From a virus (lineage: Duplodnaviria; Heunggongvirae; Uroviricota; Caudoviricetes): a stretch of DNA of 14,602 nt. The first letter of the stretch is position 1. Every line of letters starts with the position of its first letter. Location: IMG/VR virus record IMGVR_UViG_2908567220_000007. One strand, given 5' to 3'. The notes below the pieces were generated by a model. That model had not been told where the DNA came from and ran no database searches. It saw nothing but the letters and a program-made list of their open reading frames with translations. The translations under genes were made by a program, and so were the position numbers. This document shows, one piece after another, positions 1 to 14,602 of the stretch.

Positions 1-303
1 TTACTTCCTGCGTTTATCCTGCTTTGTATGCCCGTGCTGAATGCCCCGCAGTGGATCTTCTTTTTTCAGGTCGATCCCCATGTCCGTTAGTGTTTTTGTG
101 GCGGCGGTTCTTATGGCACAAATCAGGTCTCTTTCCGGTTCCCGGGTTATGGTTGCCTTCCGGATGCATGCCGTTCGTCGTTCCGTTACATACTGACGCG
201 CTTCATCACTTGCCGCCTGTTTCAGTAACTCACCCCAGCGATTAGCCGCCCGTCGCCATAAACCTTTCGCTTCCAGTTCTTCCGCTTTGTCATCATGCAC
301 CAT
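1..303 (-). CDS. PerC-family-like small transcriptional regulator (paralog of 4278..4565)
   Basis: ORF track gives 1..372; the probable start is the internal Met at 301..303 (MVHDDKAEELEAKGLWRRAANRW...), which aligns with the start of the paralog at 4278..4565 (MIRDSKAEELEAKGLYRRAAARW...RRAECIRRA) and has a GGGA motif upstream. Family assignment rests on recalled PerC/Pch motifs, not a search. Stop codon is at window position 1..3. Confidence 0.55.
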   Translation of the reverse strand: MVHDDKAEELEAKGLWRRAANRWGELLKQAASDEARQYVTERRTACIRKATITREPERDLICAIRTAATKTLTDMGIDLKKEDPLRGIQHGHTKQDKRRK

Positions 304-417
304 AAGCATAATCCCATTGATACCTGTTAAATCTGAATGGTTGGTTTCTGTTCTTTTGATAATTTTCCGCATAGCTTATTGTATGACAGTACTGTCCCAC
401 AATAAGGAGTTGCACGC

Positions 418-708
418 ATGAGAATGACCAGGCACAAAAAACAGATCCTTGAACTCTACAAACCTGAGTATCGCGATTGGGTGCGGGTGGAGGCTGGAGA
501 TCCACCTTTTGATGTTCGTGGTGTTACAGTGCTGCTCTATGGTTCCGAATATCAGCGATATCACATAGAGGCAACACGAAGGACGCTAAACGCTATGGTT
601 CGTGATAAGTTGCTGGAGCGTGTGAAAGTCCGTGAGCCACGTTTTGATGTGCGTATTGGTGGCGATGGTGCGCATTGCACGGTAATCCGCTATGGCCTGG
701 TAAGGTAA
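418..708 (+). CDS. hypothetical protein
   Basis: 96-aa ORF with a strong Shine-Dalgarno (AAGGAG, about 8 nt upstream of ATG at 418); plausible codon usage; no recognisable family. Confidence 0.55.
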   Translation: MRMTRHKKQILELYKPEYRDWVRVEAGDPPFDVRGVTVLLYGSEYQRYHIEATRRTLNAMVRDKLLERVKVREPRFDVRIGGDGAHCTVIRYGLVR

Positions 709-810
709 GCCATCGGGTAAATCAGATGATTAAATCACCAGAATGTAAATTTACATTCTGCCAGCCACCAGCTACCCTCCTCAAAATTGAGGAGCCTTTT
801 TATCAACTGG

Positions 811-1101
811 TTACCGCCGTAACCGCTCCGGCTTCTTCCACTGGTAAGTCTTTTTCTCGCTCTCCCGGTACATCTGCACGCGGCGACGGTAGGCCAATAA
901 CTCGAGTACCCTGGTGCGTATGTCGCGCATATCCACTCCGTTAAGCTCAATACCGTCACGGCGCATCACCTCAGCCACCACACGCGCATAGTTCTCAGCG
1001 ATAACGCTGTCCGGCTGCGTGGCCTCCTGTTTGCCTGCTGGTGGTCTGATCCCGGCAATCTGGCGAATCATTTTGAGCATTTCGGCTTCGGTCATTGTCA
1101 T
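811..1101 (-). CDS. hypothetical protein
   Basis: Track ORF is 811..1125; GGAGG lies 2 nt before the ATG at 1101 and 8 nt before the ATG at 1095, so the start is probably 1095 or 1101 (MTMTEAEMLKMIRQIAG...). Convergent with 418..708. No family recognised. Confidence 0.5.
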   Translation of the reverse strand: MTMTEAEMLKMIRQIAGIRPPAGKQEATQPDSVIAENYARVVAEVMRRDGIELNGVDMRDIRTRVLELLAYRRRVQMYRESEKKTYQWKKPERLRR

Positions 1102-1384
1102 GGCCTCCAGAGGATGGGGAAACAATGCCGTAATTGTGGCGACTGATAACGGGAAGGTGAAGCGCGTTTAAGCTGGTGGATGTGGTGCCATGTTTCCCAC
1201 CAATGGTGGAAAAGCCCACCAGCGCAACGCAGGACGCATAAAACCATTGCGATGACTCATGACAGGGGGATAACCACAAAAACAACGTCAGCGGCGCGAT
1301 TCTGGCTGTTCCTGTCCGGGATGTGCATACGTATTACGTACGCAGTTAATCCGGCATAACGCATGACGTTGATGAAACGCCCCG

Positions 1385-1470
1385 ATCATCGCGGGTCCTC
1401 CTGGATGGGTACCCTTACCGCGGGGCGACGGACGCGCGGAAAAAGGCTGGTTTTTGCATTTTCATGGCGG
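1385..1470 (+). other. cos-like site copy A (cosQ-like CGGGTCCTCCTGG, cosN-like GGGCGACGGACG at 1423..1434)
   Basis: Alignable to the lambda cosQ/cosN junction and to the in-window cos at 2425; a 35-bp stretch (ccttaccgcggggcgacggacgcgcggaaaaaggct) is identical to the reverse complement of 4113..4147 (copy B). Confidence 0.5.
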
Positions 1471-1864
1471 CGGCAGCATGTGTGGTAATATATTGATAAT
1501 TAAAAGTTATTTCTGTTTTCACCTGTACAATCTTTTTTCTCCCCTGTCATTAGACCAGTTCGCAATCAATTGAAATATATAAATAAATCTGATTTTCACC
1601 TGCCAGATGGAGTTGCCAGTGTCAAATGTGAGCGGAAGCGGTGATGCTTATCACTGAATCATGCCGCATCACGATACCAGACTCCCGGTACCGCTGCGTG
1701 ATAACCCACAAGGCTGGTGGCGATGCGTTATGGTCCGTGCATTGCCATTCTCCTGGCCTGGTGGCATTATCCGGCATGAACGAGCGGTTATTCTCCGTAC
1801 TCTTAATCGTTGTTCATGGTTATTTTCTTTGTGGTAGCTGACTTCTTGATGTCCTTATCCTCCT

Positions 1865-1890
1865 GCCCCGTAATCACGGGGTATTTTTTT
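1865..1890 (+). terminator. putative rho-independent terminator
   Basis: Hairpin GCCCCGT-aatc-ACGGGGT followed by ATTTTTTT on the plus strand; no convincing upstream gene, so it may end a non-coding or short-peptide transcript. Confidence 0.4.
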
Positions 1891-2424
1891 ATCTGTGATT
1901 TGCTGTTCTTCGCTGTGTTGGTATGGGGAGTTCTGGCAATGGTTCAGGCCGTCGCTTTCCTGGTACGTGATTTTTTACGTTCATTATTGTGCTGGTGGCA
2001 GCGTCACGGTGTGTCACGACATATCACCATCACGTCACGCTGATTGCGAAAGCCAGGATTAACCAGTACCGGAACGGGTAGCCCGGTGTATTGTTACCGT
2101 CCTGCCTGCTGGTGGAGTAATTGATAACGGTTATCATCAACGGGAGGGGCGGATCAAATCCCTGCAGTCCTGGCTGTCCGGGACCGCCCGCCTACCCTTG
2201 TTCACATCGCCGCAGGTTCGAAAACTTTTTTTTTGGGAAGGTGTGCACAGACTTGATAGGTAAAACCTATCAGGTAAAGCCACGTCAAACCCGCGCCATT
2301 GCTGGCATCGTTAAAAAAACTCACTCCACCAGCAGGCTAAAAAACTGTGATTTTTCCAGCTTTTGGGGCTCAAAAAGGGCTCCCTAAAAAAACTCTCACA
2401 CTGTCGGAGGGGGCGGGAAATTTT

Positions 2425-2640
2425 CACGGGTCCTTTCCGGGATCTGAAACACCGCGGGGCGGTAGACGCGCAGGATTTCACTATTTATGAAAATTTTTCA
2501 GGGGAAAAGCGTGTCGGTACTTCTCGCGCATAACTGTTTGTTTTTATTAAAATCAACCACCAGAAACATACGACATCATAAAGCCAAAAAATCCTGTTTT
2601 TTTGGCGTTTCATGTCGGAGGTGGTTTTTGATAATAAATT
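2425..2640 (+). other. lambda-like cos site (cos1): cosQ-like 2427..2440, cosN-like GGGCGGTAGACG 2457..2468, cosB-like region downstream
   Basis: ttcacgggtcctttccgggatctgaaacaccgcg|gggcggtagacg|cgcaggatttcactatttatgaaaattttt closely matches the lambda right-end/left-end junction as I recall it (TTTACGGGTCCTTTCCGGTGATCCGACAGGTTACG|GGGCGGCGACCT|CGCGGGTTTTCGCTATTTATGAAAATTTTCC). Confidence 0.7.
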
Positions 2641-2759
2641 GGTGGATTAATGTTAATAAAAATGTTTTTACTACCTGATGGAAACAACCGGAAACGTGCC
2701 GGAGAAATTACGGCAACAGAAAGGTGAGTGACAGCCGCGCAATTATTGAACAAAACTGA

Positions 2760-2952
2760 GAAAGGATCTGATAACGTCATTTTTGGCCCAAAATGCCTAC
2801 TGTCAGATCCTTTCTTTTTTTGATGATTTTACGATTAAACAATGAGTTACAGAGAAGAAGAACGGATCTGACTTTTCCCGAAAAATTTTCATAAACAGTT
2901 AAGAATTGCGCGTACCCGTACCCCCGGCGCTTAAGGTTCCGGGAAGGACCCG
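2760..2952 (-). other. second lambda-like cos site (cos4), inverted; cosQ-like 2939..2952, divergent cosN-like around 2911..2925, cosB-like region including an inverted repeat at 2760..2821
   Basis: Minus strand reads cgggtccttcccgg...gggggtacgggtacg cgcaattcttaactgtttatgaaaatttttcgggaaaagtcagatccgttcttcttc, matching lambda cosB (TTTATGAAAATTTTCCGG...CCGTTCTTCTTCG). The inverted repeat GAAAGGATCTGA...TCAGATCCTTTC resembles the lambda inverted repeat AAAGGAAACGACAG...CTGTCGTTTCCTTTC. Confidence 0.6.
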
Positions 2953-3067
2953 CCGGAGATAGCTACCATAAGGCGTAATTAAATATCCGTGGATGTGCCA
3001 CGGAACAACCAGCTGAATACAGGTCAGCGTGATGACGGGAAATAAAGAGAATGGTTGCGAATCCTCC

Positions 3068-3092
3068 ACCTGGTGAATCTCCTGCACTACCT
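3068..3092. repeat. 25-bp direct repeat (copy 1) of the 3' end of the Nu1-like gene
   Basis: cctggtgaatctcctgcactacctg is identical at 3068..3092 and 3445..3469; the second copy encodes the C-terminus QVVQEIHQGE of the 3437..3985 ORF. Confidence 0.85.
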
Positions 3093-3436
3093 GTCATTTT
3101 TGCGCAAATACCCCTGGCATTTCTAAGCATGATCAACCTGATCATTGTTCGCGGTTTTTACGTGGCAAGGCCAGTAATTACGGGGCTTACATCAATGTTT
3201 ATTCCGCCCATCTCTGCGCAAAACAACTTAACAAACCTTAACATCACAGGCGGAACCATTGCGCAAATCTGGAGGCTTACCGCACGCACCAGCCTGATAC
3301 ATTGCCAGAATGAACGAGGTGCGACACAATGTGTGTGCATGTCTTACTCATTGAACCTCAATCAAGGCGCATCCTTAGCGGTGCGCTTTTATTTTTTTGT
3401 CGTTCCCTGCTGGTGGATGTTTTCCGGTACCGCGAA

Positions 3437-3985
3437 TTATTCCCCCTGGTGAATCTCCTGCACTACCTGCGGCGTGCTGTCGTGCCAGTCGTTAGCCTGT
3501 ATCACTCTGGTAGTAATTTGCCTGCACAGGTCATCAATAATCTGCCTGACGCGGTTTACTGCGTTCTGATTGATGCCTGCATCGTGCGCCAGAATGTCGG
3601 GGAGTTTTGCCAGTTCCTCGCTTAAGATTTTCCCAAAAATAACCAACTCCCTGCGCACATCCACGGCGGGGATAAGTTCAGCCGTTTCCTGCTCGAACTT
3701 AAGGCGCTCACGCTCAGACTGGTACCAGGCTTTACGGCTTTGTGGATCCATGTCTTCGAGTGATGCGGGGGCGGGTATATTCATGAATGCGCTGATTATA
3801 TCCGTCAGTCGGTACAGCTTTAATTTTTCATGCCCTCCGGCTGGCTGAATGTCCTTTAGCCTTTTCGCTACTGTCTGGCGGCAAACTCCCGCCAGTTCTG
3901 CGAGTTGATTGATATTAAGTTTCAGGTTTTTAAGCTCCCGATCCATTCGTCCTCCGGTAGTTTTAAATGCGTATCGTGCGCTCAT
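3437..3985 (-). CDS. Nu1-like terminase small subunit / packaging-redirection protein (N-terminal HTH)
   Basis: 182-aa ORF; N-terminal NINQLAELAGVCRQTVAKRL...KLYRLTDIISAF resembles the lambda Nu1 HTH (NKKQLADIFGASIRTIQNW...VLYDSAAVIKWY). Sits about 150-190 bp downstream of cos copy B, as Nu1 does after lambda cos. An internal Met at 3944..3946 with GGAGGA upstream is an alternative start. Confidence 0.55.
   Translation of the reverse strand: MSARYAFKTTGGRMDRELKNLKLNINQLAELAGVCRQTVAKRLKDIQPAGGHEKLKLYRLTDIISAFMNIPAPASLEDMDPQSRKAWYQSERERLKFEQETAELIPAVDVRRELVIFGKILSEELAKLPDILAHDAGINQNAVNRVRQIIDDLCRQITTRVIQANDWHDSTPQVVQEIHQGE
3445..3469. repeat. 25-bp direct repeat (copy 2), overlapping the 3' end of the Nu1-like gene
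   Basis: Exact match to 3068..3092, 377 bp apart. Confidence 0.85.
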
Positions 3986-4100
3986 CTTTCAGTGGGTTAA
4001 AAGTGTTCTGTATGTTGAACAAAAAACACCCCAAATTAACATAGTAAAAATATATTTCATTTTAATTCAACATGTTGGAAAGATGATGATGACGGATGAA
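3986..4100 (-). promoter_or_regulatory. AT-rich cosB-like / promoter region upstream of the Nu1-like gene, with inverted TGTTGAA/TTCAACA sites
   Basis: atgttgaac at 4005..4013 and ttcaacatgttg at 4059..4070 form inverted copies about 50 bp apart in an AT-rich stretch, similar in layout to R elements flanking an IHF site in lambda cosB. Confidence 0.4.
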
Positions 4101-4185
4101 AATGTAAAAATTAGCCTTTTTCCGCGCGTCCGTCGCCCCGCGGTAAGGCCACCCCTCCGGAAGGACCCGTAAAAAAAGCCGGAGT
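4100..4185 (-). other. cos-like site copy B (cosQ-like 4157..4170, cosN-like 4127..4138 on the minus strand)
   Basis: Minus strand reads tttacgggtccttccggaggggtggccttaccgcg|gggcgacggacg|cgcggaaaaaggct, matching the lambda cosQ/cosN junction and near-identical to copy A at 1391..1448. Confidence 0.55.
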
Positions 4186-4194
4186 GTTCCGGCT
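4171..4194 (-). terminator. putative rho-independent terminator after the PerC-like gene
   Basis: Minus-strand hairpin AGCCGGA-acac-TCCGGCT followed by TTTTTTT (plus-strand A-run 4171..4177). Confidence 0.5.
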
Positions 4195-4277
4195 TCGTCT
4201 GTGTATGTGCGCATATGCAGGATTTTATGTTATCCGCCCACGGGAGTGATGGTCATTTTTCAGGATAATATCCGGCA

Positions 4278-4565
4278 TCACTGGTTACCGCCAGGCTGCT
4301 TCGGGTAGTTCCGCCAGACGGATTTACCCGCGTCTTCCATCCCCATCACCGCATGAGTGCGGTTTACAGCCTCTTTCAGTGCCCCGAAGTTATCCGCCAT
4401 AACGGGTGGGCGTGCTGCCCTGCGGATGCATTCCGCGCGACGCTTTGCCACCTGTTCGCGCTCCTTATCGGTGTTCACCAGCTGCATGACCTCAGCCCAC
4501 CGCGCCGCCGCTCTCCGGTACAGGCCTTTAGCCTCCAGTTCTTCCGCTTTGCTGTCACGAATCAT
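4278..4565 (-). CDS. PerC-family-like small transcriptional regulator
   Basis: 95-aa ORF MIRDSKAEELEAKGLYRRAAARWAEVM...RRAECIRRA, paralogous to 1..303; start overlaps the stop of the upstream ORF by 4 nt. Confidence 0.55.
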   Translation of the reverse strand: MIRDSKAEELEAKGLYRRAAARWAEVMQLVNTDKEREQVAKRRAECIRRAARPPVMADNFGALKEAVNRTHAVMGMEDAGKSVWRNYPKQPGGNQ

Positions 4566-5098
4566 GCGCCTGTCTTCTCCTTTGTCGCCTGACGTTTGCG
4601 CTTTTCATTCAGTGCTGCCAGCCGCGTTTCTGCCTCCTGCTGTTCCTGTGGTGTCACTTCCCCACATGGCTGGCCTTTCAGGTCGTAACGTGTGCCACCA
4701 GCCATTAAGGCGCGGTAATAGCGCGGAGACTGCGCATAAGATGCCAGCGTCGCACGTAATGCCCCCGGCCCGAATGTCAGCCCCCTGGCGGCGATATCCT
4801 GTATCAGGTCGTCGAATATCCCCACCTTAAGCGGCTTCGGTGCTTTATGGCTGAATAAGTCAGGCCACATCTCAGTGAGGCGGTTAACGCGTCGGCGGTT
4901 TTTGCGCTGCCTTTTGGTCATATGCTGACACGGTGTCGCCCCTGCGGTCTTCTGTTTGCGGCTCTGCTGTGCGTTCTGATTATCGGGTATCACTTTATGC
5001 GCCGATGTGGTTTTATCCTGCTCTTGTGCCGCCTGCGTCGTTTTCTGCGGCGTGCCGTAAATGCCTTTCGGTTTTCGGTTAATGGTCAGCTTTGTCAT
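4562..5098 (-). CDS. ProQ/FinO-domain protein (putative RNA chaperone)
   Basis: 178 aa; PLKVGIFDDLIQDIAARG...LRATLASYAQSPRYYRAL...GTRYDLKGQPCGEVTPQEQQEAE resembles the ProQ N-terminal FinO domain (PLKIGIFQDL...LRSALRLYTSSWRYL...[23 protein letters not shown], recalled). Basic, low-complexity N-terminus. SD AGGGGA upstream. Confidence 0.7.
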   Translation of the reverse strand: MTKLTINRKPKGIYGTPQKTTQAAQEQDKTTSAHKVIPDNQNAQQSRKQKTAGATPCQHMTKRQRKNRRRVNRLTEMWPDLFSHKAPKPLKVGIFDDLIQDIAARGLTFGPGALRATLASYAQSPRYYRALMAGGTRYDLKGQPCGEVTPQEQQEAETRLAALNEKRKRQATKEKTGA

Positions 5099-5134: not shown

Positions 5135-5560
5135 TTAAAACGGTATGTTATCCCCGTACGGGTCATCGTGCTGGCTTGTCTGTTGTTTTGCCCTGTTCAG
5201 TGCGTCAGTGGCCTGGCCCTGTTGACCTTTTTTGCCGCCCGGTCGCGCCGTTCGCGCACTGATTACGCTGTCTGCAATAACCTGCCAGCCCTGCCGCGTT
5301 TCCCCGTTCTGGCCTGTCCACTGGCTTACCTGCATGTTACCCGCCACGCTCACCAGTTCGCCTTTCTGGTGCCTGGCCAGTGCGTCGGCCTGTCTGCCAA
5401 ACGCCAGGACGGATAACCACATCGTCGCCGTTCCGTCATCTGCCTGGCTGCACGGCAGGGGAACCGCCATACTCGCCATCGCCATTTGTGTCCCTTTGCT
5501 GGTGGTCTTTAACTGCGGGTCAGCCACCAGCCGCCCGTAAGCCGCTATCTGTGCTGTCAT
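5135..5560 (-). CDS. ssb: single-stranded DNA-binding protein (SSB-like)
   Basis: 141 aa; OB-fold-like N-terminal region (AAYGRLVADPQLKTT...GTATMWLSVLAFGRQADALARHQKGELVSVAGNMQVSQWTGQNGETRQGWQVIADSV), Gly/Gln-rich linker and a C-terminal DDPYGDNIPF resembling the canonical SSB DDDIPF tip. ATGA overlap with the upstream ORF. Confidence 0.7.
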   Translation of the reverse strand: MTAQIAAYGRLVADPQLKTTSKGTQMAMASMAVPLPCSQADDGTATMWLSVLAFGRQADALARHQKGELVSVAGNMQVSQWTGQNGETRQGWQVIADSVISARTARPGGKKGQQGQATDALNRAKQQTSQHDDPYGDNIPF

Positions 5561-6330
5561 GCTGTATGTTCTCCGTTTTTTACTGGCCCTGTCATCAGTG
5601 CGCGCTTAAGCTGCTTGTGTGAGATATTAAACAGGCAGTTCATTCTTCCCGTTCGCTTCATCCGATAACCCGATGCGACCATTGCGGCGATTAATGCGCC
5701 GTTTGTGATGTATGTCGGCTCTGTTGGTTGCCCGTCGCCCTTAGCTCTTCTCTGATTCACACGCTCAACACAATGTTTCAGGCCGTAGGATGTCGGATTT
5801 TTTCCAGGGAATGATGCAATCTTACAGTCGGTTAGGTTGTTCTCCCTTATCCAGCGTAAACAGCTCATCGCCTCCGCCATGAAGGGCGCATAATCAAGCG
5901 GGTGCTGCCATGCCTTATCACGGCTGTACAGTTCAAGTCCGTCGCGGTTAAAAAACGGGTAAGCGGCAAGAATTACCGTTACTGCGTGTTTAATTTCCAC
6001 CTCATCATTCTGTCGCTCTTTTTCTGTTCCGTACGGATAATAATCAGAACCGCCCGGATTGATGCACTGTTTACCACTGAAAGGCCATTGCTTCGCCATT
6101 TCGGGGGTTGAGTGATTACCGTCGCTCCGTTCTCGTTGTGCCTCTGTCCACTGGCTGGCGTATTCCGTAAAACTCACCGCCTTACTCTGTCGCATCCAGT
6201 GCGCAATCATGACCAGCGTTCTGGTAAGGCTCTGTATATCTCCGTGCTTCTCACACTGTCCCGCAAAGGCCTTGAGCGCTTCGCGTTCTTTGTAGTTCAT
6301 ACCCTGACGGGTCATATTTTCTTTATTCAT
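5557..6330 (-). CDS. hypothetical protein, replication-module associated
   Basis: 257-aa ORF immediately downstream of the iteron array and translationally coupled to the SSB-like gene; no family recognised by eye. Confidence 0.55.
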   Translation of the reverse strand: MNKENMTRQGMNYKEREALKAFAGQCEKHGDIQSLTRTLVMIAHWMRQSKAVSFTEYASQWTEAQRERSDGNHSTPEMAKQWPFSGKQCINPGGSDYYPYGTEKERQNDEVEIKHAVTVILAAYPFFNRDGLELYSRDKAWQHPLDYAPFMAEAMSCLRWIRENNLTDCKIASFPGKNPTSYGLKHCVERVNQRRAKGDGQPTEPTYITNGALIAAMVASGYRMKRTGRMNCLFNISHKQLKRALMTGPVKNGEHTA

Positions 6331-6511: not shown

Positions 6512-6596
6512 GTAACCGTCTCATTTAAACCGTCTTTCGCCTCCCTTTCCTGTTTCCGATACTAATGTCCATTTTCGCAGTAAAGGGACATTTAAG

Positions 6597-7247
6597 ATGA
6601 ATGCACGAAAAGCGGTACTGGCAGACAATCCGGAATTGATCCTGCGTGTGCTACAGCTGAGATTTGACGAGTCACTGTCGTACCCGCGCATTTCTGCGCA
6701 GACCGGTGTCAGCAAAACCGCCATTTTTTCTCTGGTGAGGCGATTTCACCAGGTATTCACTGACTGGCCTCTTTCCGGTGAATATTCCTGCGGGCAACTG
6801 GCCCGGGCTCTTTTCCCGGGGCGATACCCTTCAGCCCCGACCGTGACTCAGCCTGTGAAAGCAGAGAAACCCCGCCGGAACCGATTTTCACCGGAGTTTA
6901 AATGGAGACTGGTTCAGCAAACTCTTTTACCCGGTGCCTGTGTCGCACAAATAGCTCGAGAGAATGGAATTAACGATAACCTGCTCTTTAACTGGCGGCA
7001 TCTCTGGCGTAACGGTGGCCTGCAACCGCCCGGCGAACATGAAACATCGCTACTTCCCGTGACGTTAACTCCGGAGCCGGATAATAAAATCCCGGCACCA
7101 GTGCAGATACCTGAACAGATAAATACACTGCCAGACAGTCTGTGCTGCGAGCTGGTTCTGCCGGCCGGAACTCTCAGGCTGAAAGGTGAACTGACACCGG
7201 CGTTATTACAGACACTTATCCGCGAAATGAAAGGGAGCAGCCACTGA
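6597..7247 (+). CDS. tnpA: IS66-family accessory protein (orf1)
   Basis: 216-aa ORF, first in the IS; AAGGGA Shine-Dalgarno; ATGA overlap with the next ORF, as is typical for IS66 elements. Confidence 0.75.
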   Translation: MNARKAVLADNPELILRVLQLRFDESLSYPRISAQTGVSKTAIFSLVRRFHQVFTDWPLSGEYSCGQLARALFPGRYPSAPTVTQPVKAEKPRRNRFSPEFKWRLVQQTLLPGACVAQIARENGINDNLLFNWRHLWRNGGLQPPGEHETSLLPVTLTPEPDNKIPAPVQIPEQINTLPDSLCCELVLPAGTLRLKGELTPALLQTLIREMKGSSH

Positions 7248-7594
7248 TGATATCTCTCCCTGCCGGTTCGCGTATCTGGCTGGTTGCCGGTATCACCGAT
7301 ATGCGAAATGGCTTTAACGGCCTGGCCTCAAAAGTTCAGAACGTCCTGAAGGATGACCCGTTCTCCGGGCATCTGTTCATCTTCCGCGGACGCCGGGGTG
7401 ACCAGATAAAAGTGCTGTGGGCTGACAGTGACGGACTGTGCCTCTTCACCAAACGCCTGGAGCGGGGCCGCTTCGTCTGGCCGGTCACCCGCGATGGAAA
7501 GGTTCACCTTACTCCGGCTCAGTTGTCCATGCTTCTCGAAGGCATCGACTGGAAGCACCCGAAACGAACGGAACGCGCTGGCATCCGCATATAA
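7247..7594 (+). CDS. tnpB: IS66-family protein TnpB (orf2)
   Basis: 115-aa ORF MISLPAGSRIWLVAGITDMRNGFNGLASKVQ...LFIFRGRRGDQIKVLWAD, characteristic of IS66 orf2. Confidence 0.85.
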   Translation: MISLPAGSRIWLVAGITDMRNGFNGLASKVQNVLKDDPFSGHLFIFRGRRGDQIKVLWADSDGLCLFTKRLERGRFVWPVTRDGKVHLTPAQLSMLLEGIDWKHPKRTERAGIRI

Positions 7595-7613
7595 CCCGTT
7601 GTAAAGTGAGGAT

Positions 7614-9185
7614 ATGGACACCTCACTTGCTCATGAGAATGCCCGCCTGCGGGCACTGTTGCAGACGCAACAGGACACCATCCGCCAGATGGCGAAATAC
7701 AACCGCCTGCTCTCACAGCGGGTGGCGGCTTATGCTTCCGAAATCAACCGGCTGAAGGCGCTGGTTGCGAAACTGCAGCGCATGCAGTTCGGTAAAAGCT
7801 CAGAAAAACTTCGCGCTAAAACCGAACGGCAGATACAGGAAGCCCAGGAGCGAATCAGCGCACTTCAGGAAGAAATGGCGGAAACGCTGGATGAGCAATA
7901 TGACCCGGTACTGCCATCCGCCCTGCGCCAGTCTTCAGCCCGTAAGCCGTTACCGGCCTCACTTCCCCGTGAAACCCGGGTCATCCGGCCGGAAGAGGAA
8001 TGCTGCCCGGCCTGTGGTGGTGACCTCAGTCCTCTGGGGTGTGATGTGTCAGAGCAACTGGAGCTTATCAGCAGCGCTTTTAAGGTTATCGAAACACAAC
8101 GTCCGAAACTGGCCTGTTGCCGGTGCGACCATATCGTGCAGGCACCAGTACCTTCAAAACCCATTGCACGCAGTTATGCCGGAGCGGGGCTTCTGGCTCA
8201 TATCGTCACCGGGAAGTATGCAGACCATCTGCCGTTATACCGCCAGTCAGAAATATACCTTCGTCAGGGCGTGGAACTGAGCCGCGCCACGCTGGGGCGC
8301 TGGACCGGTGCCGTTGCTGAACTGCTGGAGCCGCTGTATGACGTGCTGCGCCAGTATGTGCTGATGCCCGGTAAAGTCCATGCGGATGATATCCCCGTTC
8401 CGGTCCAGGAGCCGGGCAGTGGTAAAACAAGAACTGCCCGGCTGTGGGTCTATGTCCGTGATGACCGTAACGCCGGTTCACAGATGCCCCCGGCGGTCTG
8501 GTTCGCGTACAGCCCGGACCGGAAAGGTATCCATCCACAGAATCACCTGGCCGGTTACAGCGGTGTGCTTCAGGCAGATGCTTACGGTGGTTACCGGGCG
8601 TTATACGAATCCGGCAGAATAACGGAAGCCGCGTGTATGGCCCATGCCCGGAGAAAAATCCACGATGTGCATGCAAGAGTGCCAACCGACATCACCACGG
8701 AAGCCCTGCAGCGTATCGGTGAACTGTATGTCATCGAGGCAGAAGTCCGGGGATGTTCAGCAGAACAGCGTCTGGCAGCAAGAAAAGCCAGAGCGGCTCC
8801 ACTGATGCAGTCACTGTATGACTGGATACAGGAACAGATGAAAACACTGTCGCGTCACTCGGATACGGCAAAAGCGTTCGCATACCTGCTGAAACAGTGG
8901 GAGGCCCTGAACGTGTACTGCAGTAATGGCTGGGTGGAAATCGACAACAACATCGCAGAGAACGCCTTACGGGGAGTGGCCGTAGGCCGGAAAAACTGGC
9001 TCTTCGCGGGTTCCGACAGCGGTGGCGAACATGCGGCGGTGTTGTACTCGCTGATCGGCACATGCCGTCTGAACAATGTGGAACCAGAAAAATGGCTGCG
9101 TTACGTCATTGAGCATATCCAGGATTGGCCGGCAAACCGGGTACGCGATCTGTTGCCCTGGAAAGTTGATCTGACCTCTCAGTAA
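7614..9185 (+). CDS. tnpC: IS66-family transposase (orf3)
   Basis: 523-aa ORF with N-terminal coiled-coil/leucine-zipper-like region, CCPACGG...CCRC zinc-finger-like motif and a long catalytic core, as in IS66 transposases; GAGG Shine-Dalgarno. Confidence 0.9.
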
Positions 9186-9215
9186 ATATCAATACGGTTC
9201 TGGCGAGCCGCTTAC

Positions 9216-9243: not shown

Positions 9244-10650
9244 TTACAGTGGATGCACGTCATTGCCGTCGATAGTGATCACGCCGTCTTTTTCCAGCTT
9301 GTACAGCCAGCGCCGGAAGTGCTTCATCTCATACCCCAGCTTTTTCATATCGTCACGTAGCAGGGCGATAGTGCACGGCTCTTTGTGTGCTGTCCGTGTT
9401 CTTATGCACTGCCATAATGCGGCGTGATTCTCCGTCTTGTTCCCGGCCTCCTCGATGCGTTCCAGTTCAGCAGGGGCGCGGGGAACGTCAATCACCACCA
9501 TGGACACAATCTCTTCGCCATCTGTATCGGTGAACACCTCCACGCTTTTAAGGTCGTATGCGCTCTCTTTTGGCTCCTCTGCGTCCTTCATCTTCGTACA
9601 TGCCGCCACCAGTGCTGTAACGTCTGAATTTTCCCGGCCGATTCGGTACTCTGCATCAAGCGCGGCACGGAATGCGCTGGAACCACGCGCCCCCTTTGTT
9701 TCATCCTTGCCGGAATGGTGAACCACCAGCACCGTGGCCCCTGTAGCCTGCTTTATCGCGTCACACCCCTGGATAAATGCGCCCATATCACGGGAATCAT
9801 TTTCATCATTCCCACCAAAGCAACGGGCCAGCGTGTCGATCACAATCAGCCGCACATTTTCGCCCGTTCTGCTCTTAACAAGTCCGGCAGTCCTGATAAC
9901 CTGCTCCACATAGTCAGGCGATGCGGGAAAGACAGGCGCGTTAACGATGCACAAATCTGTAACCTCTTTTCCGTATGTTATCTCCCACGCCTTAACGCGG
10001 CGTTTTACGCCCATACTGCCTTCGCCAGCGATATAGATAACCGCGCCCTTACTTACCCTGCGGCCTCCCCATGCCATACCTGTGGCAACATGGCACGACC
10101 AGGAAATAGCCAGGAACGATTTATAAGAACCGCTGGCCCCGTAGGTGCTGCATAATGACTCAGCCGGAATAAGCCCCTTAATTACGTAGCTTTGCTGCGC
10201 GTCGAATCCCTCAGAACCCCATGAGATGGGAAGTGTGATTTTTCGCTTTCCACCATTCATGACCAGACTTTCCCCGCGTTCCCAGGTTTCTTTAAGCCGC
10301 GGTAGTTGCTCGCTCCAGTCCTCCAGCAGTTCGAAATTCTCTGAAAGTAACCGTGCTTCCTGGACACCTGCGATCGCCAGTTTGGTGGCAATGGTCAGCA
10401 TCTGCATATCGTCCAGGTTTCCGGCGCGTATGACCTTTGCTCTGTATCGTCCTTCATCAACAATCTGTAAATTGTCCAGTTCGCTTAACTGATAACGGCC
10501 CAGGTAAACCGGAGGGATGGGATCGCCTGCTTTTTTGGCCTGTGCAATCATGTAATGTTCTGCAAAGGAGTGAGCATTATCACCCGCAAAAATAACCGCC
10601 TCAGTGTGTTTATCTTTCGGTAACAGTTTTACGTTCGGTGCCAGTTTCAT
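9244..10650 (-). CDS. RepA-like P-loop replicative helicase (RecA-fold ATPase)
   Basis: 468 aa; P-loop-like GASGSYKS, Walker B-like RLIVIDTL, and VLVVHHSGK motif reminiscent of RSF1010 RepA-type helicases; C-terminal winged-helix-like tail; AGAGGT Shine-Dalgarno; followed directly by the iteron array. Confidence 0.75.
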   Translation of the reverse strand: MKLAPNVKLLPKDKHTEAVIFAGDNAHSFAEHYMIAQAKKAGDPIPPVYLGRYQLSELDNLQIVDEGRYRAKVIRAGNLDDMQMLTIATKLAIAGVQEARLLSENFELLEDWSEQLPRLKETWERGESLVMNGGKRKITLPISWGSEGFDAQQSYVIKGLIPAESLCSTYGASGSYKSFLAISWSCHVATGMAWGGRRVSKGAVIYIAGEGSMGVKRRVKAWEITYGKEVTDLCIVNAPVFPASPDYVEQVIRTAGLVKSRTGENVRLIVIDTLARCFGGNDENDSRDMGAFIQGCDAIKQATGATVLVVHHSGKDETKGARGSSAFRAALDAEYRIGRENSDVTALVAACTKMKDAEEPKESAYDLKSVEVFTDTDGEEIVSMVVIDVPRAPAELERIEEAGNKTENHAALWQCIRTRTAHKEPCTIALLRDDMKKLGYEMKHFRRWLYKLEKDGVITIDGNDVHPL

Positions 10651-11411: not shown

Positions 11412-11644
11412 AACCCCCCCCCATTTTCACAATCAGCAATCAGGATAGCCCTGGCCTCATTCAGTGCCATATCAGCGGTAAGCTGTGCGTAGGCCAGCGA
11501 ATGCGGGATTATTGCCCCTGTATATTCCGGCTCTCTGGTAATGTGTTTTTCCGCGGTTGCTGCCGTGCATGAAATATCAATCAGCGCATCAATCAGTGTT
11601 TTGATTGCTTCGGCGACTGCGTCCGGACGGGTGTTATTGCACAT
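11384..11644 (-). CDS. hypothetical protein (possibly the N-terminal part of a frameshifted gene)
   Basis: 86-aa ORF with GGGGG Shine-Dalgarno; reads through the poly-G tract as GGG and stops 9 codons later. Confidence 0.45.
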   Translation of the reverse strand: MCNNTRPDAVAEAIKTLIDALIDISCTAATAEKHITREPEYTGAIIPHSLAYAQLTADMALNEARAILIADCENGGGLCVMIVLMP

Positions 11645-11840
11645 GATGCACCCCCTGACGAATACGGGCGGCGAATACCATCACGCAGCCAGCCGGGGAT
11701 TGCTGGCGTGCTTCCTGTTCGCTGGTGGCCTCAATGGTAATCACGCGCGGTTGTGCCGTGCTCAGGGCGATAAAACGCCAGATGTATTTATTCAGGTTGT
11801 GCGAGTCCCGCCCTTGCGGGTGTCTGGTATAATTTCTCAT
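11634..11840 (-). CDS. hypothetical small protein, first gene of the leftward operon
   Basis: 68-aa ORF from the ATG at 11838..11840 with GAGGTA Shine-Dalgarno; it is the 3' portion of the 328-aa track ORF, the rest of which looks like antisense read-through. Confidence 0.4.
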   Translation of the reverse strand: MRNYTRHPQGRDSHNLNKYIWRFIALSTAQPRVITIEATSEQEARQQSPAGCVMVFAARIRQGVHHVQ

Positions 11841-11879
11841 AGCTACCTCGATACTCTTTCTATCGTTGGTGGTTAGACG

Positions 11880-12036
11880 CCCTGCATGTGTGCCACCACT
11901 GCGGGGCGTTGCTGTATATACACCACAATTATTGGTGTGCATACAGATTAAATTTAAGTGTGCTACAGTGTCAAGTGTTTTATTAACACACCTTTTGGTG
12001 TAATGTGTACACACCTCAAAATAACCGGACATCCTA
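11880..12036. promoter_or_regulatory. divergent promoter/operator region with clustered ACACC/GGTGT inverted repeats
   Basis: TATATACACCA-7-TGGTGTGCATA at 11915..11943; ACACC-TTTT-GGTGT at 11988..12001; GGTGT-9-ACACC with palindrome GTGTACAC at 12005..12012; three AGTGT direct repeats at 11958..11978. Confidence 0.45.
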
Positions 12037-12342
12037 ATGGCAACAGGAAACATCAACAGCAGATCGCAAATGAAAAATATCCGCTTCCCCCATGATGTAA
12101 TCGAGGAAATGGAAAATTCGAAAACGGAAGGGGAAACAATAGCCGCTTTCGTGATTACAGCTGTTCGCGGGGAGATCGCCCGCCGCCAAGCTGAAGGAAG
12201 CGGAGAAAATCCCCTGGTTTCTTCGCTCGATGCACTGGCGCAGGTGGAAAAAATTGGAGTCAAAGCTGCCGAGGAGATCGGGCAACTAGTCGCCGTCGCG
12301 CGTGAAGAACTCCAGCGCCGCAAGGCCAAAGAGCAGGAATAG
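12037..12342 (+). CDS. putative small DNA-binding regulator (possible ribbon-helix-helix; coiled-coil C-terminus)
   Basis: 101-aa ORF divergent from the leftward operon; KNIRFPHDVIEEMEN looks like a strand-helix ribbon-helix-helix start; weak Shine-Dalgarno, and an alternative start at the Met at 12070. Confidence 0.45.
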   Translation: MATGNINSRSQMKNIRFPHDVIEEMENSKTEGETIAAFVITAVRGEIARRQAEGSGENPLVSSLDALAQVEKIGVKAAEEIGQLVAVAREELQRRKAKEQE

Positions 12343-12445
12343 CCCACCAGCAAGCCAGCACACTGATCACATTGCCAACCGGATGTAATCACGGCATAGT
12401 AATCAGCGCTCATGCGTTGGGGATAACGCGCAATTAGTGTTGAAG

Positions 12446-12474
12446 GGCCACCGTAGCGGGTGGCCTTTGTTTTG
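12446..12474 (+). terminator. putative rho-independent terminator
   Basis: GGCCACC-gtagcg-GGTGGCC hairpin followed by TTTGTTTTG, about 100 nt after the 12342 stop. Confidence 0.5.
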
Positions 12475-12624
12475 CCTGTTATCCGGCAATTGTGGCGCTT
12501 CGCCACACGGTTGATATAATTCCCCTGCACTGATCCATTTTTTTCGCAGCAGGTTAATTGTTCGCAAGGGCGCTCCGGCAACGGGGCGCTTTTTGTTATG
12601 TTCATCGCGTTACGCCTCACACCA

Positions 12625-13360: not shown

Positions 13361-14602
13361 TTACACGGCACGGATACCCCTTTTACCACTGGCTATGGTC
13401 ACTCCGGTAGCTGCGGCCTCTACAAATTCCCCCCACCAGCGCATAAGCACCACGCGCTTTTCCAGGTAGTTACTTCGGTTATATGCTCGCCTTACCTCGT
13501 TTGTGTCCACGTGTGCGAGTGCGGCCTCGATTACGTCCGGCTCGAATCCTTCCTCGTTCGCTGCTGTACTGAATATGGCGCGTAATCCGTGAGACACCAG
13601 CACACCAGCGTAACCCATCCGGCGCAATGCGGCGTTAGCTGTCTGGCTGCTCATTGGCAGCATTGGATTTTTAAGGCTGGGAAAAACGTGTTCCCTGTGT
13701 GCGCTGATTGGCTTCATGGTTTCCAGTACAGCCATAGCCTGACCGCAAAGGGGGATCACGTGGTCACGGCGCATCTTCATGCGTCCGGCTGGAATCGTCC
13801 AGGTTTCGGCATCGAGATCTATTTCTTCCCAGCGTGCGGCGGCTGCTTCGGCTGGGCGTGCTACGGTCAGCAGTTGCCACTCAATCAGCAATCTGGTTTG
13901 CCGTTCTATGCTGGCGACCGATAAATCGTGCATTAGCTGCGGTAGCTGTTCCGGTCGGATGGTTGGCATGTGCTTTTTGGTGGGTGAGGGGAATGCCTTG
14001 CGGACGTTCGCGGCGGTGTTGATGTCAATCAGCCCACTGTTGGCAGCAAAATCCATCACTTCATTGATGCGTTGTAAAACGCGTTTCAGGGTTTCCAGGT
14101 TGCCGCGTGCTTTAATGGGTGTGAGTATCTCAACAAAGCGGCGAGCTGTGAGGGTATCTATTGGCGTGTTTCCGATGTACGGGAATACGTATTTTTCCAG
14201 GGATCGCCAGATATCCTTAATCGTGTTGTAAGCCAGATTCTGGCCTTTTTTCATCTCGTACCAGTCCGAGGCAACTTTTTCGAACGTGTTGCCCTTTTTC
14301 CGACTCTCTGCTTCACGTTTCCGGCGTTCGTGGTCCTGTGGGTCAACTCCCTTCGCTATGAGTGACCTGTATTCATTCCGTCGTTCTCTGGCATCGGACA
14401 GGGAAACATCATTCAGCGATCCGAGGCTGATGATAGTCCGTTTTTTATCTGCCGGGCGGTAGTACGTAAAACGCCAGATTTTTGATCCGGAGGGTTTCAC
14501 CAGAAGAAATAATCCTCCACCATCCTGCAGGGTGTATTCCTTTTCCCCTGGTCGTGCGTTTTTGATCTCCGTAATAGTTAGTGGGGTGGTTTTTCGTGCC
14601 AT
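13361..14602 (-). CDS. int: P4-type tyrosine integrase (site-specific recombinase, phage integrase family)
   Basis: 413 aa; N-terminal arm-binding-like region (MARKTTPLTITEIKNARPGEKEYTLQDGGGLFLLVKPSGSKIWRFTYY); C-terminal catalytic region with HGLR box and RRAYNRSNY tyrosine region. Start codon is the last three bases of the window. Confidence 0.95.
   Translation of the reverse strand: MARKTTPLTITEIKNARPGEKEYTLQDGGGLFLLVKPSGSKIWRFTYYRPADKKRTIISLGSLNDVSLSDARERRNEYRSLIAKGVDPQDHERRKREAESRKKGNTFEKVASDWYEMKKGQNLAYNTIKDIWRSLEKYVFPYIGNTPIDTLTARRFVEILTPIKARGNLETLKRVLQRINEVMDFAANSGLIDINTAANVRKAFPSPTKKHMPTIRPEQLPQLMHDLSVASIERQTRLLIEWQLLTVARPAEAAAARWEEIDLDAETWTIPAGRMKMRRDHVIPLCGQAMAVLETMKPISAHREHVFPSLKNPMLPMSSQTANAALRRMGYAGVLVSHGLRAIFSTAANEEGFEPDVIEAALAHVDTNEVRRAYNRSNYLEKRVVLMRWWGEFVEAAATGVTIASGKRGIRAV

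Follow-up and report, generated by a model that had tools for sequence, protein, structure and literature searches.

The 14,602-nucleotide (nt) viral record IMGVR_UViG_2908567220_000007, analysed over its whole length and called the window below, carries two genes of the PerC family, perC1 and perC2. The window is a satellite of the phage-inducible chromosomal island (PICI) type of about 12 kb, plus a 2.7-kb IS66-family insertion sequence (IS), integrated at tRNA-Pro. It is 100% identical across all 14602 nt to the chromosome of Escherichia coli CV839-15 (CP024978.1, locus L010), a strain described as a porcine enterotoxigenic E. coli (ETEC) vaccine strain. [quoted passage not shown]

The initial annotation had pointed to two related open reading frames (ORFs), at 1..303 and 4278..4565, without naming a strand. 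Both are present and intact, and both lie on the minus strand, because translation of the plus strand gives nonsense. PerC1 (1..303, 100 aa) begins MVHDDKAEELEAKGLWRRAANRW and PerC2 (4278..4565, 95 aa) begins MIRDSKAEELEAKGLYRRAAARW. Their assignment to the PerC family was borne out by Pfam PF06069, which matches PerC1 with 81.1 bits (E 7.5e-23) and PerC2 with 122.7 bits (E 7.5e-36) at a gathering score of 22.6 bits, each protein covering the profile over nearly its full length. In RefSeq sister islands whose copies are near-identical, at 98.5% or more, the NCBI Prokaryotic Genome Annotation Pipeline (PGAP) gives both ORFs the name 'PerC family transcriptional regulator'. The proposed paralogy and shared core also stood: the two proteins are 42% identical over 96 residues in pairwise BLASTP (E 1e-20), so the common motif is beyond chance. 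The core A-x-x-L-E-x-x-G-x-x-R-R-A-A-x-R-W ... R-R-x-x-C is found in both, as in PerC of enteropathogenic E. coli (EPEC) and in PchA; D4, A7, L10, E11, G14, R17, R18, A19, A20, R22, W23, R36, R43 and C46 are invariant in alignments with PerC, PchA and PchE. Compared with homologues, PerC1 has a ratio of non-synonymous to synonymous substitution (dN/dS) of about 0.10 and PerC2 one of 0.25-0.39, indicating that both genes are maintained as coding sequences under purifying selection. A longer, 123-aa version of PerC1 starting at 372 was rejected, since the homologues in L029 and L015 keep the ATG at 303 but not the one at 372; we therefore use the 100-aa reading, which is also that of PGAP.

To place the two proteins within the family we used reference proteins from annotated records: PchE (O157:H7 Sakai prophage Sp7), PchA (Sakai Sp4), PchD (Sakai SpLE1), EPEC PerC (plasmid pMAR7), the PICI homologue of the CFT073 chromosome, and EcCIMP1_025 (E. 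coli MP1). The identities are as follows.

CFT073 homologue: PerC2 65%, PerC1 49%
PchE: PerC2 62%, PerC1 51%
EcCIMP1_025: PerC2 52%, PerC1 40%
PchA: PerC2 49%, PerC1 35%
EPEC PerC: PerC2 45%, PerC1 34%
PchD: PerC2 33%, PerC1 38%

For both window proteins PchE and its CFT073 orthologue outscore PchA, PchD, EPEC PerC and EcCIMP1_025. These identities place both in the PICI-borne 'group 3' (PchE) lineage and not in the LEE-activating group 1, whose member PchA is further from them than are PchE and the CFT073 homologue. The setting differs as well, the window genes lying in a PICI of an ETEC strain and not, as group-1 genes do, in a lambdoid prophage of a LEE-positive strain. PerC2 occupies the position typical of group 3, directly after the replication/single-strand DNA-binding protein (SSB) block of a satellite with P4-type integrase and AlpA; the distal PerC1 does not. 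A recent tandem duplication was rejected, PerC1 being closer to PchE (51%) than to PerC2 (42%). Judged by sequence, PerC1 and PerC2 are old paralogues of the PerC/Pch family. A separate observation concerns naming: P0018, a 122-aa E. coli protein that NCBI calls 'PchABC family transcriptional regulator', is 82% identical to PerC2 and has a 27-residue N-terminal extension. Its core is, by eye, roughly half identical to PchA; we did not take the label as evidence for group 1, and it looks like an annotation inconsistency.

PerC2 in the satellite backbone and the rare PerC1

The initial annotation regarded both genes as cargo of the island. This describes PerC1 well, which is rare, distal and equipped with its own divergent upstream region, but not PerC2, whose position is conserved. 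PerC2 is the positional orthologue of PchE: the homologues in Sakai Sp7 and in the CFT073 island EcCICFT073 directly follow ssb. In the window, the replication block runs helicase, a hypothetical 257-aa protein (orf257), SSB, ProQ/FinO-domain protein and PerC2, with a packaging-type gene just downstream. The order primase or helicase, SSB and/or ProQ/FinO where present, PerC, and then packaging or other genes recurred on all contigs of diverse homologues that we inspected, which included the present island type, a related two-copy island, capsid-forming PICIs (cf-PICIs) of E. coli, EcCIMP1-like Salmonella islands, Pluralibacter and Klebsiella. A pattern scan with one genome per species returned 14 loci, of which 13 were usable; in 10 of these 13, the gene that directly precedes PerC on its strand is SSB, ProQ/FinO or primase (E. 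ruysiae, Atlantibacter, Shimwellia, three Enterobacter species, Lonsdalea, Pantoea, Chimaeribacter and Erwinia). The satellite position of PerC recurs in at least twelve genera of Enterobacterales, and this conservation across satellites of many genera makes PerC2 a backbone gene rather than variable cargo. A PerC-like fragment was also found in L041 (JBLKRX010000125.1, 326 nt, 0.88x coverage), from an assembly labelled Fredinandcohnia humi (Bacillaceae); it is almost certainly contamination and not a Gram-positive member of the family.

At 4562-4565 the ATG of perC2 and the stop codon of the ProQ/FinO gene share the letters ATGA. Satellites of Escherichia, Salmonella and Pluralibacter (L021, L024, L030) have a similar junction: the ProQ and PerC genes as called overlap in the latter two, and in E. 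ruysiae one match directly adjoins the other. The overlap suggests that translation of PerC2 is coupled to that of the ProQ/FinO protein, and the arrangement suggests that the two may form a co-expressed pair of RNA chaperone and regulator.

PerC1 was found in 56 of 5426 complete E. coli genomes, and its lineage consists of few clusters, nearly all from E. coli. The gene is within the island, since the right attachment site (attR) in sister loci lies about 1.2 kb further out. A 114-bp region parts perC1 from a divergent 96-aa ORF and contains a 32-bp palindrome (375..406; CTTATTGTATGACAGT/ACTGTCCCACAATAAG) with 16-nt arms, 88% complementary and without a spacer. Its outer arms are kept in L029, a homologue with 83% nucleotide identity, and absent in L015; we regard the palindrome as a candidate operator. 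The rarity of the lineage, the distal place and the separate divergent upstream region fit an accessory, independently expressed gene. Islands with two copies are recurrent: the entry 'PerC family transcriptional regulator (x2)' appears for many loci, some of them in capsid/decoration-type islands.

The island and its insertion sequence

The window has the genes expected of a PICI (integrase, AlpA, DUF4222, helicase and SSB, in this order) and has no structural or lysis genes. After subtraction of the IS, about 11.9 kb of island lie inside the window (the typical range is 12-15 kb), and a gene resembling the small terminase subunit (TerS) is the sole one related to packaging. Along the minus strand, the order is integrase, AlpA, several small ORFs, DUF4222, RepA-like helicase, orf257, SSB, ProQ/FinO and PerC2, followed by the DUF1441/TerS-like gene, a stretch of about 2.3 kb in which no gene is credible, and then two small ORFs and PerC1. 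The features are listed below.

13361..14602, minus strand: P4-type tyrosine integrase (PF00589, PF22022, PF13356); tRNA-Pro adjoins it in L010, L001 and L002
12625..12831, minus strand: AlpA-family regulator (PF05930, E 4.5e-08), the activator of the PICI cycle in EcCICFT073 (PMC6092414)
10647..10946, minus strand: DUF4222 protein, homologue of RgdR (ECs1581) (PF13973, E 1.3e-24)
9244..10650, minus strand: RepA-like helicase (AAA_25) of the replication module (PF13481, E 2.4e-43; phrog_2850)
6512..9214, plus strand: IS66-family insertion sequence with three ORFs (Pfam transposase ORFA matches; IS66 families in L010)
5557..6330, minus strand: orf257, 257-aa hypothetical protein, first gene past the IS in the rightward operon
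5135..5560, minus strand: SSB (PF00436, E 8e-16)
4562..5098, minus strand: ProQ/FinO-domain RNA-chaperone-like protein (PF04352, E 7.3e-25; the NCBIfam FinO and ProQ models match under their cut-offs)
4278..4565, minus strand: perC2, 95 aa (PF06069, E 7.5e-36)
3437..3946, minus strand: DUF1441/small-terminase-like gene of the packaging module, downstream of perC2 (PF07278, E 4.7e-35; phrog_141 'terminase small subunit', E 2.2e-55)
811..1095, minus strand: 94-aa hypothetical protein (phrog_1561)
418..708, plus strand: 96-aa hypothetical protein divergent from perC1 (ORF list; PGAP WP_001243000.1 in L001 and L002), with no Pfam, NCBIfam or PHROG match
1..303, minus strand: perC1, 100 aa, last gene of the window (PF06069, E 7.5e-23)

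The tRNA-Pro lies beside yejM, and direct repeats of 16-17 nt flank the sister islands, one on the integrase side and the other (attR) about 1.2 kb past perC1. In the source locus L010, attR was not found in the 757 nt of flank after perC1, and the sister loci were used. Some sister islands occupy tRNA-Pro, with yejM and yejO on either side, and others are integrated elsewhere; this island type was seen at three chromosomal sites.

The IS66-family element is bordered by a perfect 8-bp target duplication, CCGCTATC, as seen by comparison with the empty site of sister islands that lack the element. It sits between the helicase gene and orf257-ssb-proQ-perC2. In EcCICFT073 a helper phage turns on AlpA, which activates the island genes and the PICI cycle (PMC6092414). 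The insertion is probably polar on the helper-induced operon, and it may have disabled this copy of the island.

Several other observations concern single regions of the island. The DUF1441 protein had no sequence match among solved structures, Rpp included, so its sequence gives no ground for naming it a homologue of Rpp. The region 1126..3436, about 2.3 kb, has no credible ORF, and PGAP predicts no gene there in sister L002; parts of the region are rich in AT, and several hairpins within it resemble terminators. In some sister islands (L001) a 'terminase small subunit' gene stands at the point of a 506-bp indel (window 2663/2670). The region could hold a cos or pac site, decayed genes, or an RNA partner of the ProQ/FinO protein; an Rfam scan of the window matched no RNA family. 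At the other end, a 328-aa ORF (11634..12620, minus strand) overlaps a 101-aa plus-strand ORF (12037..12342), which matches the position of a PGAP 'YlcI/YnfO family protein' gene in sister islands. The 328-aa ORF has no PGAP counterpart in the sisters, some gene callers giving a 323-aa product (L010, L012), and is probably spurious. RgdR, which is encoded in O-island 51 and regulates LEE1 and motility, shares 69% identity with the DUF4222 protein; the latter has PGD where RgdR has its RGD motif, of which residue 20 is functionally important (PMC3378721).

Proposed mode of action and competing explanations

A search of solved structures with the PerC2 sequence returned nothing relevant. We built an AlphaFold2 model of PerC2 from a 55-sequence alignment; its mean predicted local distance difference test score (pLDDT) is 77, and about 89 for the first 50 residues. 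The model has helices at 5-13, 16-29 and 33-50; a linker rich in Pro then leads to a further helix at 57-73. We looked for a helix-turn-helix in PerC proteins and found none. The PerC/Pch family consists of small, basic, all-helical regulators. The only biochemical mechanism established for it, and the best model at hand for its action, is that of PchA, which lowers H-NS occupancy and relieves silencing by H-NS, StpA and Hha at LEE1 (PMC4764244).

We propose that PerC2 is translationally coupled to the ProQ/FinO protein and would normally be co-expressed with the replication block once AlpA has been turned on by a helper phage; the IS present here probably uncouples it from AlpA-driven expression. 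PerC1 would be expressed independently of island induction. Both proteins would act through their conserved N-terminal module of three helices, which is tetratricopeptide repeat (TPR)-like and distantly similar to the ANR family of anti-activators, and by analogy to PchA they might remodel nucleoprotein complexes containing H-NS or other regulators. Their targets would then be island genes together with host surface and motility genes, as csgD and flhDC are for PchE; in a host lacking the LEE the target would not be LEE1.

Several points weigh against this proposal. The mechanism is transferred from PchA, to which the window proteins are only 35-49% identical, and the absence of the LEE from CV839-15 is deduced from the pathotype. 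A promoter scan found 4 sigma-70-like sites, where 7.5 are expected in shuffled sequences, none of them near either perC gene, so the statements on expression are drawn from gene arrangement. In O157, expression of pchE fell, rather than rose, upon SOS/prophage induction (PMC6265319), which argues against simple co-induction with the island. Finally, some PICI-encoded PerC homologues activate the LEE (PMC6092414), and overexpression of PchE raised ler about 2-fold (PMC7369912).

A broader idea, which we put forward only tentatively, is that PerC-type proteins are an ancestral part of the Enterobacterales satellite backbone, with an SSB-ProQ/FinO-PerC module expressed in the satellite cycle, and that the LEE regulators PerC and PchABC are later exaptations. 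The primary job of these proteins would then belong to satellite-helper biology, for example counter-silencing of the satellite's own late genes or manipulation of the helper. In PICI papers, perC and proQ are counted among the accessory or virulence genes (PMC6092414, PMC11773190, PMC13612085). PerC-family genes in E. coli PICIs were described in these same reports (2018, 2025 and 2026, respectively), and PGAP annotates both window genes, so their presence here is an already known and ordinary finding. One point goes beyond these papers: SSB, ProQ/FinO and PerC form a conserved backbone module across Enterobacterales satellites, which supports the modestly novel, still tentative idea of a role intrinsic to the satellite.

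In a rival explanation, PerC2 would be the late regulator of the island, turning on the packaging module or manipulating helper genes like P4 Delta, with secondary effects on the host. Its fixed place between the replication and packaging modules in three PICI architectures and at least twelve genera is consistent with such a role, as are the overlap of its start with the upstream ProQ/FinO stop, the fact that no minus-strand site resembling a terminator separates perC2 from the DUF1441 gene, and the AT-rich 3' flank (42% GC for 3901-4200). We nevertheless consider it unlikely. The drop in pchE upon SOS induction counts against it; the EcCICFT073 mutants in the accessible part of PMC6092414 (int, alpA, pri-rep, c1499 and c1500) apparently omit the PerC homologue, by our own locus-tag mapping; and some PICIs have no PerC gene, its presence being described as variable both for EcCIMP1-like elements (PMC11773190) and for the PICIs of Enterobacter cloacae (PMC13612085).

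Another explanation is that the window proteins work like ANRs (Aar, Rnr, Cnr), purely by binding AraC/XylS-family activators and H-NS and so damping adhesin and virulence regulons. ETEC strains carry AraC-type fimbrial regulators. They also encode ANR members (PMC4983702, PMC5570504), and EcCIMP1_025 represses LEE1, for which its authors propose ANR-like action (PMC11773190). The PerC proteins share with ANRs the three-helix N-terminal module predicted for the latter (PMC4983702), and the missing helix-turn-helix would suit a protein-binding mode. In both proteins the ANR model NF033650 matches residues 6-52 in register, at 19.0 and 16.2 bits, below the curated cut-off of 32 bits, so ANR membership does not follow from score. 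A full hidden Markov model (HMM) search with the PerC profile gave 356 representative clusters in 1.84 billion proteins, and 9 of 10 short hits picked from it, which have the N-terminal module only, likewise gave in-register ANR matches (16.5-28.2 bits), every one of them also below that cut-off. The N-terminal 50 residues show three confident helices, but the window proteins have 95-100 aa and further helices with a conserved C-terminal region, whereas ANRs are below 10 kDa. Moreover, the island encodes no AraC-family partner, and for PchA, binding to DNA regions but no co-precipitation with H-NS has been reported (PMC4764244). On balance we think it improbable that ANR-like binding is the whole mechanism. 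In two other E. coli records (L042, CP178308.1, and L043, CP178306.1), matches of about 47 aa at 6001..6141 consist of the N-terminal PerC module only; they lie near a P4-type integrase, outside any satellite replication block, and may be ANR-sized relatives.

The LEE and comparison with known systems

The initial annotation took both proteins for PerC/Pch-type activators of ler (LEE1), carried as cargo, through which induction of the island would raise LEE virulence expression. Activation of LEE1/ler is the activity to which the PerC family owes its name. Both are true PF06069 members with the invariant core of PerC and PchA, PerC2 is 49% identical to PchA, the island carries a homologue of RgdR, a LEE1 activator (PMC3378721), sister islands occur in Shiga toxin-producing E. 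coli (STEC) and O145:H28 strains, and the two reports of LEE activation given above point the same way. The LEE link is nevertheless not supported. The nearest homologues that have been assayed show little, no or a repressing effect on LEE1: EcCIMP1_025 silences LEE1-lux in Citrobacter rodentium (Pick et al., PMC11773190), the PerC-like genes of EcCIEDL933 and EcCICFT073 have no impact on LEE1 fusions (PMC11773190, citing Porter 2005), and PchE is reported to have little effect on the LEE, while repressing csgD and curli and inducing flagellar genes (PMC6265319, which for the LEE also cites Porter 2005, and PMC7369912). Identity to the activators is only 35-49% for PchA and 34-45% for EPEC PerC, neither window protein has the longer C-terminal tail of PchA, and the genes are not, unlike pchA, on lambdoid, effector-carrying prophages. 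The host is a porcine ETEC strain, and to our knowledge the ETEC pathotype lacks the LEE, as do Salmonella, Klebsiella, Enterobacter, Pantoea, Erwinia and Lonsdalea. PerC2-type genes keep their fixed position in such LEE-less genera, including plant-associated ones, which argues that they were selected for something other than LEE control. PerC1 and PerC2 are therefore unlikely to be LEE activators, and we find it very doubtful that induction of the island acts on LEE expression through them.

These results carry a correction: a PerC-family match in a satellite should not be taken for a LEE activator. In published assays the PICI-type clade, PchE included, gave no effect, repression or non-LEE phenotypes, and the arrangement of SSB, ProQ/FinO and PerC across many LEE-less genera suggests a role intrinsic to the satellite.

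Among known systems, the ANR family (Aar, Rnr, Cnr) resembles the window proteins in its small three-helix module, likened to the PerC N-terminus. ANRs, however, have about 60-70 aa and no PerC C-terminal region, and ANR genes accompany AraC-family genes, of which there are none here. PchA, PchB and PchC of enterohaemorrhagic E. coli (EHEC) and EPEC PerC belong to the same Pfam family and share the invariant N-terminal core. PchA/B/C are encoded on lambdoid prophages (pchA on the lambda-like Sp4, near lysis genes), EPEC PerC is encoded in the perABC operon of the pEAF plasmid, and the C-terminal tail of PchA is longer than that of either window protein.

The PICI-encoded relatives are closer. 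EcCIMP1_025 (EcCIMP1, E. coli MP1) is a PICI PerC-family gene situated a long way downstream of its island's primase and close to the distal end. The EcCICFT073 protein (WP_000233305.1, 82 aa) is, like PerC2, the product of a PICI backbone gene after ssb; it is shorter at the C-terminus and comes from an island of the type with Rpp and capsid decoration. PchE (ECs1588; O157:H7 Sakai Sp7/O-island 51/EcCIEDL933) is of the same family and size (about 90 aa), and its gene has the same PICI position as perC2, directly after the SSB gene and ahead of the packaging/capsid module. The two islands differ in that the window has a ProQ/FinO gene between ssb and perC2, a RepA-type helicase and a DUF1441/TerS-like gene where Sp7 has a primase and a full capsid module, and a second copy, PerC1. 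The phenotypes of PchE are repression of csgD and induction of flagella, and it is to PchE that we liken both window proteins by sequence, and PerC2 by position as well.

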